Virus record (IMG/VR): IMGVR_UViG_3300032116_022045
Direction: 5' to 3' (one strand)
Source of the DNA: a virus
Taxonomy: Duplodnaviria; Caudoviricetes
Length of the DNA: 64,000 bases
The notes under the pieces were generated by a model. The model was given only the letters and a program-made list of their open reading frames with translations, did no database searches and was not told the origin of the DNA. Positions 4,641 to 16,150 of the stretch are shown here, in pieces (position 1 is the stretch's first letter; the number at the start of each line of letters is the position of its first letter). The translations under genes were made by a program, and so were the position numbers.

Positions 4641-7600
4641 AAACCCCATTCATCTACTTCATCTATTGTTATAACAGGTTCAGAAATTTCTTCTATATTT
4701 TCAGCGAATGTATCATCATATTCGTCTTCCAATATAATATCTTCATTATATTTTTCATCAATTATTTCATCTGATTCTATATCATCAGAATCTTCATCTG
4801 TGTCTACATCTTTTATGGTCATAACTTCTTTTTCTTCATCTATTTCATTGTTTACAGTCAATTTTATTTCACTAATTGATGTTAACTTAGTTGTAGCTGA
4901 AAAGATGTCATCATAACCGTTTAAAAGAGATTTTGAAATAACATAATTAATCCATTGTTCGTATTTATCTTTATGTTTTTCTATTTTATGCTCTTTATAG
5001 TATTCATTTCTATCAATTGCAATAGATTCATATTTAAAAATGTCTTCTATTGGACATAATGGTTCTTCCCATTTATTTGAAACAAGCATATAAGGTGCTT
5101 CTGTTGATATATTAGCAATTATAGATATTGTTTTTGGTAATACATTTGTTTTGATTATATCTTGTAAATCAATAACTTCTAGTTTTCTAAAAATATCATC
5201 TAATTTAGCTTTTTCTGAAACAATACCATCTGCTTTTTCTTTAATCATTCTTTGAATGTAATCTTTTCTTATGGTATCCCATTCATCTGCTTCCATATAA
5301 TTTGGTTGTTTATTAACGCTATCCCAGAATCTTATTTCTTTATCTTCCATAGTCATAAGTTTTTCATAAGAATCTTGGTCAACTTCTTTAAATGGCATAC
5401 CTGAAACAAGTTCACATTGTTCTTTTTCAAAAATATGTTTAGGTTTTAGTTTTTCAGTCACTTGTTTTGTTTCTGGGTTTTTAACTTTAACCGTTGTTAT
5501 TAAAATATCTTTTCTAACATCTGGATGAAAACAGACTAATAGTGGTTTAACCTTTTTATTAAAGGCTTCTAAGTATCTAAGTACGTTATATTCATCTATA
5601 TATAGATTATCATTTAATTGATTAATGGTTTCAATTAATGATTTATATTCTTCAGAATCTGGTGATAAGATATTTAAACTTAATTTTAGACTTTCTATTT
5701 CTTTAATTGTTTCTAAATCTTGTTCAACACGTAATGAATCAATTAATTTACAATTCAATTCTGTTTTTGTTGTGAAATTTGGTTCATGACCATGCAGTTC
5801 AACATATTCCTTAACTGCTTTTTTAGACATCTTATCACGTCTAATAGTTTTTAAGTCACCTTGACCTTTTTTAGTACCAATATTAACATAGTATATTGTA
5901 TCACCCAAATCAACATCTATTTCATTTTTAACAACAAGTTCCATATGAGCTTGTTTTGGCATTGGATTACCAGCTTTATTTTTTAATTTAGCTTTTTTTA
6001 GATAATCAGTTACGTTTATTTTAACTTTAGATTTACTAGCTATTTTAACTAATGGTATTTGATAGTTATATATTTTGTCAACATATTCTTGGTAATAGTT
6101 TATGAATTTATAACCTTCACCATCCAATAACATTCTTATACCATTATTAATAAATTCTTCAATATAAAGTGGCATTTTTTTAGATTTGATTGAGTTACCA
6201 ACCAATTTTATTTTACCATCAATATCATTAGCATAATTTTTTCTTGCGAAGTTAATCGTAGAATTACAGATATCGTCAATATCAAGACCCATTCTACCTT
6301 CCATGTATTCTTCATTAAATTCTGCAAGAACTGCTTCAAGACCAACCAATTCTTTTCCAGCATCATTAACTGTTTTCCAATGGTTACCTTTTGCAACATA
6401 TTTAATATCATTAACATTATCTGGGAAAGAAAAATTACAACCATCTGTATCTAAAACTAACGGTTTAAAATTATATTTCTCAGTAAAATGTCTAACCATC
6501 AAACGTAAACTCTGTCTACCACGACAAGTAGTTTCTTCAGCAGAATTTGTATCACCCCAATTAAAAATATATGGTGCGCCATATGAACCAAACCATGAGT
6601 TAGCCAATATTTTAAGTGGTAATTGTTTTTTATCGAATAAATTTGATAAGAATTTATTCTCATCAATTTCTTTAATTATTTCATTTATTGATATTTTTTC
6701 ATTCTTAAGTTTTTCTTGTAGTTTTTTGACTATTTTTTTGTGTTTACCAGTTAAGAATTTAAACTCATCTCTGGTATCAACAACATAGGTCAAAATACCA
6801 CGCATAACGCCAGATATATCCAAATCTGGGAATATACCCCAAGTTAACTGTGTCTTTGGATATAGGGCAGCAAAATCAAGTTTAACGACATTTTTAGCAT
6901 AACCAACCTGAAGAAGTCTTGATAAACCACCAGTAAACTCTCTCTTTTTTTGTGTTTCAGGTATTGCTAAGTCATTTTGATATGACCATGCGGCCATAAT
7001 TAATTTCCATTGACCAGCAGTACCCATTGTTGATGAACGCATAAAACTGGTTGGTAATATTTTTGATAATAAAAATGATGCTTGATTAAATATATTATCT
7101 ATTTGTTCAGTTTCCCATAAGTCATCATAAAGATATCTTTTAATAACATAATCACCAGTTACAATTTCATAATTTTCTTTTAATGGTCTTTTTTCAGATA
7201 TCACATACCAGTCACCAGTATTTTCATTAAAAGCGTATTGATTCTTTTTATCAACCCATGTTGAGTTAATTTTATCGCCTGGTACATAAACACGATTTTC
7301 TTTAGCTATTTCAGAATATTTTGTAATATATTTAAGTGTCCAACTTTTAATATCTGAGTTAATAGACATTGCTCTACGAACAGCATGTGATATATCTATA
7401 ATATTATATCCATACATGTATGTTTGTTTATATTTTTCAGTTTCGCTACCTAACTTTAATGTTGAATCTCTTCTATATATCTTATGATATGGACTTAAAG
7501 TTTTTGCTATCTCAGTTATTGGTATATTTAATCGTTCACATCGTTCAAATAAAAACTTCCAATCAAATGATTCTGAGTTATAACCTGTAATAATATCTGG

Positions 7601-13767: not shown

Positions 13768-14202
13768 ATGAAACTTTACAATTTATTTAAAGATGTTATT
13801 TTAGAAGAAAGAAACCTTTTATCTGAAGGTGTATCTCAATCTCAAATTGAAGACGCTATTAATAATCAATATAACGTCAAAATTGAATATAGAGATTATG
13901 AAAATGAACCACCAAGTAAAAGGTATATTCAGGTATATAACTTATCCAAGACAAAAGCTGGTAATTACGCTATTAGAGCTTATCAAATATTTGGTGGTTC
14001 TAAAACAACACCAAAAGAAGGTTCTTGGAAAATATTTAGATTAGATAGAATAGAAAAATGGGAACCAACAAAAGTAAAATGGAAACAACCAGTATCTGAT
14101 TTAGATAACACTATACCAAAATATAATAAATTAGGAGACAAAACAATGTCAGTAGTATTAAAAAAAGTTAATTTAAAAAATGGAAACACCACAACCAGTT
14201 GA
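13768..14202 (+). CDS. Stand-alone WYL-domain protein
   Basis: VKIEYRD...KRYIQVYNL...YAIRAY...WKIFRLDRI, the WYL (SH3-like) signature. Confidence 0.75.
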   Translation: MKLYNLFKDVILEERNLLSEGVSQSQIEDAINNQYNVKIEYRDYENEPPSKRYIQVYNLSKTKAGNYAIRAYQIFGGSKTTPKEGSWKIFRLDRIEKWEPTKVKWKQPVSDLDNTIPKYNKLGDKTMSVVLKKVNLKNGNTTTS

Positions 14203-14740
14203 TTTAAACAGATTAAAAGGTATTTTAAGTAATGCTAAAAAAGTAATGAAAGTAACGGATGAAAAATTCCCTACTAAAACTGCATCTAAGCAACAAGCAG
14301 AACCAATATATGAAAATATTGGCCCTATGTATGATGAAAATGATGAAAGAGAACCAAATTATAACACTTATAACCCAAGTTCAAATAATAATGATGGTTC
14401 ATATACACAAGAACAAGTATTAGCGTCAAAATTACCACAAGCAATTAAAGAAATAATGATAAAAAAACCAATTCCTAAGATAAATGGTTTACCTCAAAAA
14501 TTTACATTAGATGAATTAAGTGATTTGGTTGAAAAACCAAAAGCTAATAAAAGAACTATTACCGAAAATAAATCAAATAACGATAACATAACAATTAGTC
14601 TATCACAATTAAACGAATTAATAGACCAAAGAGTTAATAAAATTTTAGCTGAACAATTCACAAAACACATTAGTGAACAATCAATTAAAAAAACAATATC
14701 TACTTTGATTAAAGAAGGAAAATTGACTAATAAACGATAA
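14180..14740 (+). CDS. Hypothetical protein
   Basis: 186-aa ORF followed by a terminator. Confidence 0.6.
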   Translation: METPQPVDLNRLKGILSNAKKVMKVTDEKFPTKTASKQQAEPIYENIGPMYDENDEREPNYNTYNPSSNNNDGSYTQEQVLASKLPQAIKEIMIKKPIPKINGLPQKFTLDELSDLVEKPKANKRTITENKSNNDNITISLSQLNELIDQRVNKILAEQFTKHISEQSIKKTISTLIKEGKLTNKR

Positions 14741-14770
14741 ATTAATTATTTAAATGTTTTTTTTTTATTT

Positions 14771-14797
14771 AGGGGAATTTAAGTTCCCCTTTTTTAT
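14771..14797 (+). terminator. Intrinsic terminator
   Basis: AGGGGAA-TTTAAG-TTCCCCT followed by a T-run. Confidence 0.85.
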
Positions 14798-14870
14798 TTA
14801 CAAATTACTTATTAAAGATTATAATTGTTAAGTAATAATAACAATAAAATAAAGAACATAATAAAAAATT

Positions 14871-16150
14871 ATGAATCAAATTAATAAACAAAAAACTACC
14901 CCTGTAGGTCGTAAATGTAAGGTACTTGTAGTCCCTTCAGACCGTACAGGGGTAGGTTAAATGGTTTTTTTAGGTCAACTAATCCACACATTGAATTAGA
15001 AAATAAATATCCTGACTTATTTAGTGTAGATATTGATTATGAACCACAATTAGATAATGATGAATGGTTAAAACAATATGATATTATTCATTATCATAGA
15101 ACTTTAGGTCCTTTTGAAACAATTCAAAATGTTTTAGATAGATGTAAAAAGCTAGGTATTGTTACTATTATGGATATTGATGATTATTGGGCACCAGGTA
15201 ATCACCACCCAGCTTATTTATTAATTAAAAATTCTGGTATGGATAAAAAAATTGAGAATAATCTAAGATATTCTCACAATATCACAACAACTACACCAAT
15301 ATTTGCTAAAGAAATAAGTAAATACAACAAGAATGTTTTTGTATTACCTAATGCAATTGATGAAAAAGAACCACAATTCATTCCAACACCAGTTACATCA
15401 GAAAAATTAAGGATTGGTTGGTTAGGAGGTTCATCCCATTTAAAAGATTTAGAAATTTTAAGTGGATTAGTTAATAGATTAAAAGCAGATGGTTTATTAG
15501 ATAAACTACAATTTGTTTTATGTGGATTCGATTTAAGAGGAACGCATACAGAAATTGATAAAAATACTGGACAACAAAGACAAAGACCTATTTTACCAAA
15601 AGAAAGTGTTTGGTATCTTTATGAAAAAATATTCACAGATGATTATAAAACAATTAGTCCAGAATATAGAGATTTTCTATTAAAATTTGTGCAAGAAGAA
15701 TATAAAGATGTTGAAAATGAACCTTATAGAAGAGTTTGGACTAAACACGTATCTAGTTATGCTACTAATTATAATTTATTTGATGTTTCACTTGCACCAT
15801 TAGAAGAAAATGTGTTTAATAAGAATAAGAGTCAATTAAAAGTTATTGAAGCAGGTTTTCATAAAAAAGCTTTAATAGCACAAAATTTTGGACCTTATCA
15901 AATTGATTTAGTTAATGTATTTAAGAGTGGTGGTGCAATAAATGAAAATGGTAATGCTATTTTAGTTGATTCTAACAGAAACCATAGTGATTGGTATAAA
16001 GCGATTAAAAGACTGATTAACAACCCTGAAGTAATCGATATTATGAAAAATAATTTAAGTAACTTGGTTAAAAGTACTTATAGTGTTGATGCTGTTAATG
16101 AGACAAGAAAAAATCTTTATTTATCTTTATTAGAGAAAAATAAAAATTAA
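14871..16150 (+). CDS. GT-B glycosyltransferase split into a 29-codon N-terminal ORF (14871-14960) and a -1 frame ORF (open 14921-16150); candidate recoded gene
   Basis: Frame 0: MNQINKQKTTPVGRKCKVLVVPSDRTGVG*. The -1 frame continues GFFRSTNPHIELENKYPD...MDIDDYW...LRIGWLGGSSHLKDL...NKSQLKVIEAG. The ORF track captured only 15170 onward. Confidence 0.8.
14896..14954 (+). other. GC-rich 15-bp hairpin ending at the premature stop
   Basis: CTACCCCTGTA-GGTC pairs with GACC-G-TACAGGGGTAG (one bulge, 29-nt loop region). Confidence 0.75.

Follow-up and report, generated by a model that had tools for sequence, protein, structure and literature searches.

A candidate short translational bypass carried by a homing-endonuclease cassette in a phage glycosyltransferase gene

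In a 64,000-nucleotide (nt) stretch of Caudoviricetes DNA (IMG/VR record IMGVR_UViG_3300032116_022045; hereafter the window, with a G+C content of 27%), a glycosyltransferase (GT) gene is divided into two open reading frames (ORFs) that the ribosome may join by a short hop over the intervening stop codon. The upstream frame, ORF1, is 29 codons long and ends in GGG GTA GGT followed by the stop TAA (14958-60); after two further letters, AT, a second GGT opens the sequence GGT TTT TTT AGG TCA, which leads into ORF2, a 394-codon frame of the GT-B type. This layout had been given in a preliminary description of the window, and its coordinates were confirmed in the sequence, as was the 423-residue product (29 + 394 codons) that a hop from the first GGT to the second would give. 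The downstream frame is open from 14957 to its stop at 16148-50, is closed on its 5' side by a TAG at 14954-56, and has its first canonical start only at ATG 15170. The codon before the stop, referred to here as the take-off codon, is therefore the sole place at which the frame could change. No tRNA genes were found in the window.

A search covering 5.8 billion proteins returned an uninterrupted form of the enzyme (P0002, locus L003) of 411 residues, which is 100% identical across ORF2 and has the N-terminus MKKIKILVLPSDRTGVGFFRSTNPHI. It reads SDRTGVGFFRS, an exact match to the predicted GGT-to-GGT hop product, ...TGVG-FFRS. The preliminary description had put forward this 8-nt hop alongside a G-V-G-x-F-R-S spacing expected of uninterrupted homologues; P0002 has that spacing, and ...SDRTGVG-FFRS is the uninterrupted allele's own sequence. 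ENA, JGI and Logan samples together supply at least 13 contigs with the interrupted form, where it appears as a truncated gene call of 326 residues (P0004), and a contig from an independent run (X5) spans 14759-15400 with zero differences from the window. The check on assembly that had been proposed at the outset came out in favor of the break, and an assembly error is ruled out. A relative with 94% identity (L002) has the same 29-codon ORF and gap.

A contig from a further run (X12) contains the uninterrupted allele, in which 14823 is joined to 14962 via 77 other letters. In alignment A1, the window and this intact allele are identical downstream of TGGTTTTTTT, whereas all synonymous positions upstream of it differ (TCA GAC CGT ACA GGG GTA vs AGT GAT AGA ACT GGC GTT). 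Hence, the break is the 3' end of a 138-nt foreign cassette and not a local indel. On this alignment, the strain-level intact allele sets the boundaries of the cassette to single-base precision. An inactivating, duplication-like insertion of eight nucleotides, which the preliminary description had listed among its alternatives, does not agree with this arrangement, as the 8 nt are the end of the 138-nt replaced segment. Within the cassette lie an endonuclease 3' remnant, a new start, a recoded N-terminus, the hairpin described below, the stop and the spacer (Table 1). ORF1 carries a 12-residue extension, which encodes the left arm of the hairpin. A DNA search of the phage collection at blastn sensitivity gave no match; at the protein level, the collection contains a match of 35% identity to a 735-kb uncultured phage and other, weaker ones.

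Table 1. Positions of the features around the junction in the window (14771-16150).
Feature	Position	Strand	Remarks
Terminator-like hairpin and T-run, end of the upstream 186-aa gene	14771-14790	+	kept in intact and gap alleles
Sigma-70-like promoter, TTTACA-17-TATAAT	14797-14825	+	11/12 matches; cassette boundary inside the -10 box
Bypass cassette (putative), 138 nt, replacing 77 nt of the uninterrupted allele	14824-14961	+	run X12 contig, alignment A1
Homing-endonuclease C-terminus remnant, KIKNIIKNYESN and stop	14846-14884	+	frame differs from that of ORF1
ORF1, 29 codons, MNQINKQKTTPVGRKCKVLVVPSDRTGVG	14871-14957	+	ATG 14871; cassette-borne copy of the GT N-terminus
5' hairpin, 15 bp, one bulge (G14944)	14896-14955	+	fold; covariation in 33 alleles
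Take-off codon GGT (Gly29)	14955-14957	+	
Coding gap TAAAT (stop TAA and 2-nt spacer)	14958-14962	+	displacement of peptidyl-tRNA would be 8 nt
Landing codon GGT, proposed to be re-paired without a second decoding	14963-14965	+	joined GVG-FFRS as in intact P0002
ORF2, 394 codons and stop, remainder of the GT4-like GT-B glycosyltransferase	14966-16150	+	

Two pattern scans, anchored on GGGGT and on the downstream YFRS..PH codons, were used to collect further alleles; the second allowed any insertion of 1-31 nt and set no condition on a stop. Their combined yield was 55 true loci with 33 distinct sequences. A stop codon (TGA, TAA or TAG) lies directly 3' of the take-off codon in 55 of the 55 loci. 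The displacement from take-off to landing codon in the 33 alleles is 5 nt (two alleles), 6 nt (5), 7 nt (10), 8 nt (14, the window included), 9 nt (1) or 10 nt (1), with a gap of 5 nt in the window and of 2-7 nt in its relatives; in the 5-nt alleles, GGT TA GGT, a TAG stop overlaps the landing codon. All three frame relations occur, and the joined product is always GV[G/S]-[Y/F][Y/F]RS, as in uninterrupted homologues. ORF1 keeps the KVLVVPSDRTGV[G/S] motif throughout the 33 distinct cassettes, with zero frameshifts or stops.

The two codons flanking the gap are identical in 13 of these alleles and differ by a third-base pyrimidine swap in 8, by GGY to GGA in 3 and by an A/G exchange at the first base in 9 (Ser AGY to GGC in 8, GGC to AGC in 1). 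In 21 of the 33 distinct alleles, the two codons are thus the same or share a tRNA, and in the rest they are near-matched; judging from anticodon pairing, tRNA-Ser(GCU) on GGC would retain two Watson-Crick pairs and a U-G pair. Within one GT clade, TGAC and TGACG replace each other as the gap, and AGC and GGC as the landing codon, without loss of the ORF. Such interconversion is accommodated by a hop, and by no single frameshift or readthrough mechanism.

Immediately upstream of the gap, the RNA is predicted to be strongly structured. A 130-nt stretch folds at -34.7 kcal/mol (z = -2.6 against shuffles) and includes the 15-bp hairpin, with C14896 paired to G14955. The preliminary description had placed this hairpin at 14896-14954; the structure is real, and its end has to be moved by one base, into the take-off codon. 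The 3' arm is made up of the DRTGV codons and the first base of the take-off codon. In an alignment of the 33 alleles (A2), the proposed structure is 91% paired, compared to 32-45% when the partners are slid by 1-3 columns. Double changes are found at nine pairs (54 cells), and 0 of 500 shuffles reach the observed covariation; for the helix 14896-14955 taken by itself, 92% of cells are paired, with double changes at 7 pairs. The most telling covarying pairs are those left free by the scan pattern: the pair at the third base of the Val codon is CG in 17 alleles, UA in 8, GC in 5, AU in 3 and unpaired in none, that at the first base of the take-off codon is UA in 18 and CG in 9, and that at the third base of the Thr codon is AU in 28 and UA in 5. 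Because G-U pairs are present, the structure can be assigned to the sense RNA.

The hairpin accompanies the gap. The extension that supplies its left arm, TPV[G/S][R/H]K, is present in 33 of 33 gap alleles and in 0 of about 108 intact homologues examined. Gap alleles fold at -29 to -37 kcal/mol, compared to -5 to -13 kcal/mol for intact alleles with GGGGT, which are without the hairpin. One locus (L104; IMGVR_UViG_3300007520_000021, around 5648-5800, minus strand) has a cassette-like extension, SPISHK (MGNMITKIENENSPISHKIRLLVVPSDRTGVGYFRS), together with a decayed hairpin and no gap; this lineage looks to have lost the gap via an in-frame fusion. No Rfam family matched the hairpin. Taken with the allele comparison above, the relatives bear out what had been suggested for them in the preliminary description: the stop is kept, the landing codon is matched or near-matched and the hairpin covaries, while the gap length varies through all frames.

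The structure of the enzyme was predicted from its uninterrupted form. An AlphaFold2 (AF2) model of intact P0002 (predicted local distance difference test, pLDDT, 85.4; predicted template modeling score, pTM, 0.83) shows a GT4-like GT-B fold, and its top Foldseek matches are GlgM, MshA, BshA, PimA and PglA (E ~1e-12). There is a match to phrog_7162 'glycosyltransferase' (1.7e-43); Pfam Glyco_transf_4 scores 15.6 bits, below its cutoff. Strand beta1 is formed by residues 4-9 in the model, and helix alpha1 starts from residue 15, which places the junction within the invariant DRTGV[G/S]xxRS segment at the start of alpha1. Across 37 aligned intact homologues, S11 to V16, R20 and S21 are invariant. 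Based on the model, ORF2 alone would be without beta1, the core strand of the N-terminal domain, and the two-Rossmann GT-B fold of the window enzyme would be complete only with ORF1 and ORF2 joined.

All complete loci have a full-length ORF2, apart from L070 with a nonsense codon and L023 with Ns. Close gap-bearing pairs have ratios of nonsynonymous to synonymous divergence (dN/dS) of 0.07-0.10. For the window type and L002, which share a derived architecture without the endonuclease and diverge by about 8% over 6 kb (about 12 differences per 150 nt), dS is 0.32, dN 0.033 and dN/dS 0.10. Between the same two, the segment 14895-14982 has 0 differences where about 7 would be expected. As judged from these divergences, the downstream ORF is under purifying selection. 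In a freshwater metatranscriptome run (X15), contigs covering 14995-15147 and 15347-15400 match ORF2 exactly, which is compatible with transcription, though DNA carry-over is also possible. In L070 (PVMS01062531.1), the nonsense codon is a single in-frame one at ORF2 codon 101 (SNN-stop-KISRN) in a gap-bearing GT that is otherwise complete; it may reflect a real pseudogene, a polymorphism or an error of assembly.

Several further GT entries were seen along the way. Four truncated calls in the protein database (P0064, P0069, P0070 and P0108) have 386 residues each, P0064 being the gap allele of L008. Two others of 408 residues (P0059 and P0065) start with L/M-NSYYRSTKPH and may be gap alleles beyond the reach of the GGGGT-anchored pattern. 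At nine loci (L013, L014, L015, L028, L036, L041, L074, L087 and L088), the hop-dependent ORF2 has 764-781 codons, with the GT fused to a second domain of about 370 residues.

The source of the cassette can be traced in relatives that retain more of it. In L008, whose GT is 72% identical, the original N-terminal stub (MKKIKILVVPSDRTGV, then a stop) is followed by a fragment of another ORF and by a new start encoding MENINKMAPVSRKIKVLVHPSDRTGVS, after which the junction reads AGC TGA TA AGC TAT TTC AGA AGT. Other loci have a complete ORF of about 300 residues between stub and cassette, directly 5' of the cassette. This ORF matches NUMOD3 (33.3 bits, against a Pfam cutoff of 20.4) and phrog_3339 'homing endonuclease' (2.5e-15) and has a weak PD-(D/E)xK-like match, REase_MTES_1575. 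Among 45 loci with enough upstream DNA, 15 have the endonuclease in full, 8 have it in partial or frameshifted form and 22 lack it. The window belongs to the endonuclease-absent kind, and its 13-codon remnant matches the endonuclease C-termini of relatives (L026, ending NIILEIIKNYEKN, and L051, ending NIINKIIEKYETNN, each followed by a stop) at the same place 5' of the cassette ATG. The promoter-like site, which up to its TATA is common to the window and the intact allele L003, is fused directly to this remnant. No further endonuclease copy was found when the endonuclease was searched against the window with tblastn.

On the ORF2 protein tree, which includes 30 rows with the gap and 108 intact ones, at least 11 changes of the gap state are required, of which well-supported branches force at least 8, and gap and intact alleles are identical or near-identical at several tips. 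This scatter on a tree of protein sequences fits a mobile element that is gained and lost. The relatives display the hallmarks of a free-standing homing-endonuclease element, namely an ORF with predicted DNA-binding and nuclease modules and a presence/absence polymorphism at one conserved site. Read in the light of these comparisons, 14824-14961 of the window is the endonuclease-less remnant of a mobile cassette. In its full form, the cassette pairs a NUMOD3-type homing endonuclease gene with a recoded copy of the glycosyltransferase 5' end, and its place of insertion is codon 17/18 of a GT4-like glycosyltransferase gene of the phage. The stop and the few bases at its end interrupt the conserved target sequence and would in this way shield the carrier from its own endonuclease. 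The position of the gap at the insertion site and the recoded flank make such a role in self-immunity the most likely one. The preliminary description had instead considered that recoding might titrate or switch the synthesis of a glycan island; no support was found for this, and the data point to the footprint of a selfish homing-endonuclease element.

The left junction of the element was seen in seven relatives (L015, L025, L036, L051, L053, L077 and L085), about 650-1000 nt 5' of the cassette ATG. In each, the N-terminal stub of the GT survives through GV[G/S]Y(F), after which the frame is lost by an apparent 1-nt deletion in TAY TTY AGA; a conserved AGAYTTTTT motif then marks the left end of the element. 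Since the stub reaches through GV[G/S]Y(F) 5' of the element, recipient codons 17-20 are present on both sides of it. A few kb downstream of the GT in L008, a second homing-endonuclease-like gene (5595-6161, minus strand) has a faint LAGLIDADG_3 match, which suggests a region rich in selfish elements. On the 5' side of the strong terminator in the window, which itself closely precedes the GT promoter, lie two genes, one for a small protein with a weak WYL match (13768-14202) and one for a 186-residue protein of unknown function (14180-14740), and their synteny is kept in all relatives.

From the anatomy of the junction, its conservation, the covariation, the selection on ORF2 and the mobility of the cassette, we infer a programmed short translational bypass that would act like that of T4 gene 60 without being homologous to it, a reading to which we assign a probability of roughly 80%. 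In this mechanism, the ribosome would translate ORF1 and pause with peptidyl-tRNA-Gly on the take-off codon and the slowly decoded TAA in the A site. The tRNA would then detach from its codon, the mRNA would slide by 8 nt, and the tRNA would re-pair on the landing codon, with decoding restarting at TTT 14966. The product would be a 423-residue protein with a junction identical to that of the uninterrupted homologues. At the level of sequence, this is indirectly supported by gap lengths in all frames combined with a constant joined product, by the purifying selection on ORF2 and by the agreement of the product with the intact allele. For the window, as an endonuclease-less version, the hop would be the only route to the enzyme.

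The hairpin presents a plausible driver for the slide. Its 3' arm takes up the 15-17 nt immediately 5' of the P-site codon, with a one-base overlap, and would be melted inside the ribosome; re-zipping at the mRNA exit would draw the mRNA along, up to the capture of the next cognate codon. This picture fits the displacements of 5-10 nt, none of which is as long as the arm buried in the ribosome. The 12-residue extension would lengthen the nascent chain from 17 to 29 residues, which, speculatively, may also lessen drop-off. In the passages of Wills, Parsawar & Atkins (2024, bioRxiv 10.1101/2024.12.09.627546) that bear on this point, mRNA pairing on ribosome exit is proposed as a driver of forward bypassing in gene 60.

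The gene 60 bypass is carried by a MobA homing-endonuclease element, as stated in the sections cited here of Manning & Atkins (2022, bioRxiv 10.1101/2022.08.31.505936) and Agirrezabala et al. (2017, PMC5462505), and the insert is described in the former as blocking self-cleavage by MobA. Both there and here, one protein comes from two ORFs, the Gly take-off and landing codons are matched, a stop directly follows the take-off codon, and the gap arrives with a homing-endonuclease cassette bearing a divergent copy of the flanking coding sequence; in both, the endonuclease has been lost progressively and the bypass kept. However, the gap of gene 60 measures 50 nt, compared to a displacement of 5-10 nt (gap of 2-7 nt) here. 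It contains a take-off stem-loop, and gene 60 also uses an internal Shine-Dalgarno sequence, whereas the gap here is too short for either. From clade to clade, gene 60 does not conserve its 5' stem-loop, while the 5' hairpin here is conserved and strongly covaries. The host genes (Topo2L, gp39/gp60, vs a glycosyltransferase) and the enzymes (HNH enzyme MobA vs, in the relatives, a NUMOD3 protein with a PD-(D/E)xK-like domain) are different as well, and the two cassettes have zero sequence homology. Thus, the comparison to gene 60 made in the preliminary description holds for the manner of working but does not extend to membership in the gene 60 cassette family.

Two other kinds of skipping invite comparison. 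Short stop-hops in E. coli reporter constructs, reportedly found by Weiss, Dunn, Atkins and Gesteland in 1987, likewise have the peptidyl-tRNA leave the codon before a stop and re-pair on a matching codon a few nucleotides downstream, with displacements of, for example, +5 and +6. Those sites are synthetic or adventitious, whereas the one described here is natural, conserved and mobile and has a dedicated RNA structure. The byps of Magnusiomyces mitochondrial genes, which Lang and colleagues in 2014 and Nosek and colleagues in 2015 are said to have described with lengths of 27-55 nt, resemble the present gap in being mobile GC-rich insertions in AT-rich coding sequence that are flanked by matched codons and skipped in translation. 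They reportedly have their hairpins inside the gap, are mitochondrial and lack a tie to homing endonucleases; here, the gap is unstructured and the hairpin lies upstream, in translated sequence.

Several points weigh against the proposed hop. Recent homing into already diverged genes would weaken the dN/dS argument, except for the window and L002 with their shared endonuclease-less architecture. None of the X15 metatranscriptome contigs crosses the junction. The first-base mismatch between Ser and Gly codons affects 9 of 33 alleles, and the repeated codon could in part be an inherited by-product of the joining of cassette and recipient instead of a selected landing site. The invariance of the GGGG/CCCC pairs is partly a matter of ascertainment, as the scan pattern fixed GGGGT and YFRS..PH and drew on one GT clade. 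For the in-frame displacements of 6 nt and 9 nt, readthrough of the stop is indistinguishable from a hop. Finally, the stop-hops of the reporter constructs are reported to be inefficient.

The junction could alternatively be the scar of a selfish element, with no full-length enzyme made and with the open ORF2 and conserved ORF1 reflecting recent invasion and horizontal spread of a young cassette. The mobility of the cassette and its scatter across the GT tree would be expected here, the strain-level presence of an intact allele suggests that some hosts could do without the gene, and L070 has its nonsense codon. The hairpin region of the cassette, far less diverged than the GT gene, could also mean recent spread. 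Nevertheless, ORF2 is full length in about 40 complete loci although the GT lineages are only 60-70% identical, and between the window type and L002 its dN/dS is 0.10 despite 8% divergence of a locus whose endonuclease-less architecture they share. ORF1 retains its motif free of frameshifts and stops. In addition, compensatory substitutions in the hairpin indicate selection on an RNA structure that would have no role in a dead gene, and the hairpin has decayed where the gap was lost (L104). We consider a scar or pseudogene improbable.

Somewhat less probable still is a set of frame-specific recoding events: a -1 or +2 frameshift in the window, a +1 shift at the AGY-UGA-C alleles like that of prfB, and readthrough in the in-frame alleles, each with 1-3 extra residues at the junction. 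The gene prfB, encoding RF2, uses a programmed +1 frameshift at CUU UGA C with an upstream Shine-Dalgarno-like AGGGGG. The largest class here, AGY TGA C GGC, resembles its shift site, and in both systems decoding is slowed by a stop in the A site, the shift codon is preceded at 2-3 nt by a G-rich element (here GGGG, 2 nt upstream) and the mRNA advances relative to the P-site tRNA; readthrough of the 6-nt and 9-nt classes would also keep the frame. However, prfB shifts by exactly +1, whereas the window needs +8 (frame -1) and its relatives +5 to +10, and the G-run here is paired with an upstream CCCC arm, as the covariation indicates. At least three unrelated mechanisms would be needed in one homologous cassette that interconverts within a clade (TGAC to TGACG). 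A -1 slip from GGT to AGG in the window pairs poorly, and any earlier slip meets the TAG at 14954-56, including the one at A-GGG-G that the preliminary description had offered. From its anticodon, tRNA-Ser(GCU) shifted by +1 onto GCU or GUU would pair worse than on the GGC landing codon, and extra residues would enter the invariant DRTGV[G/S][Y/F][Y/F]RS loop at the start of alpha1.

We regard as very unlikely a split enzyme, in which the 29-residue ORF1 peptide would assemble non-covalently with an ORF2 protein made by non-canonical re-initiation. Re-initiation near a stop after termination occurs in bacteria, yet the window and most alleles have no ATG, GTG or TTG in frame with ORF2 close to the landing codon. 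ATG 14961, from which the preliminary description had envisaged re-initiation with a -1 slip on T-TTT-TTA, is out of frame and its ORF ends after 12 codons, and other alleles have TAC TTC or TAT TAT at the place of the slip. The 29-residue peptide would have to supply beta1, a central strand of a Rossmann-like domain, and the match between the pre-stop codon and the codon of resumption would be left unexplained. Precedents for endonuclease-split phage enzymes that reassemble do exist, such as the MobA-/MobE-split topoisomerase and NrdA subunits (in the passages cited of Manning & Atkins 2022, bioRxiv 10.1101/2022.08.31.505936).

Some single explanations were also rejected: a -1 programmed frameshift (T-TTT-TTA, 14965-71, lies 3' of the stop and is not conserved, and the -1 frame has the TAG at 14954-56), a prfB-type +1 shift (in the window, TAA A follows the take-off codon and a change to the -1 (+2) frame is needed, a likeness to the motif being confined to the 7-nt class), stop-codon reassignment (TAA, TAG and TGA are all found behind the take-off codon, and the majority of gaps shift the frame) and transcriptional slippage (a homopolymer is absent at most junctions).

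T4 gene 60 has been the single well-studied example of programmed bypassing, and in 2022 its cassette was described as unique and confined to Topo2L in the part of Manning & Atkins (2022, bioRxiv 10.1101/2022.08.31.505936) that deals with it; full-text searches of the literature found no report of bypass in a glycosyltransferase. A wider proposal, on which we would put odds slightly better than even, is that translational bypass has arisen on more than one occasion among homing-endonuclease elements as a form of self-immunity, and that the family described here is mechanistically distinct: a tunable hop of 5-10 nt, driven mainly by refolding of a hairpin in already-translated mRNA at the ribosome exit, over a gap with neither structure nor Shine-Dalgarno sequence. 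Because gene callers truncate the gap alleles (326-residue and 386-residue database calls), these enzymes are annotated wrongly, as fragments, in the genomes of freshwater phages. With its natural variation in gap length, codon pair and compensated hairpin, the family offers a ready mutant panel for the distance and force of ribosome sliding and, if the exit-refolding reading is true, would be a minimal natural system for testing the model of mRNA pairing at the exit as the driver. If the bypass itself is true, a second, non-homologous family borne by homing endonucleases would make bypassing a recurrent answer to the self-cleavage of intron-less homing elements.

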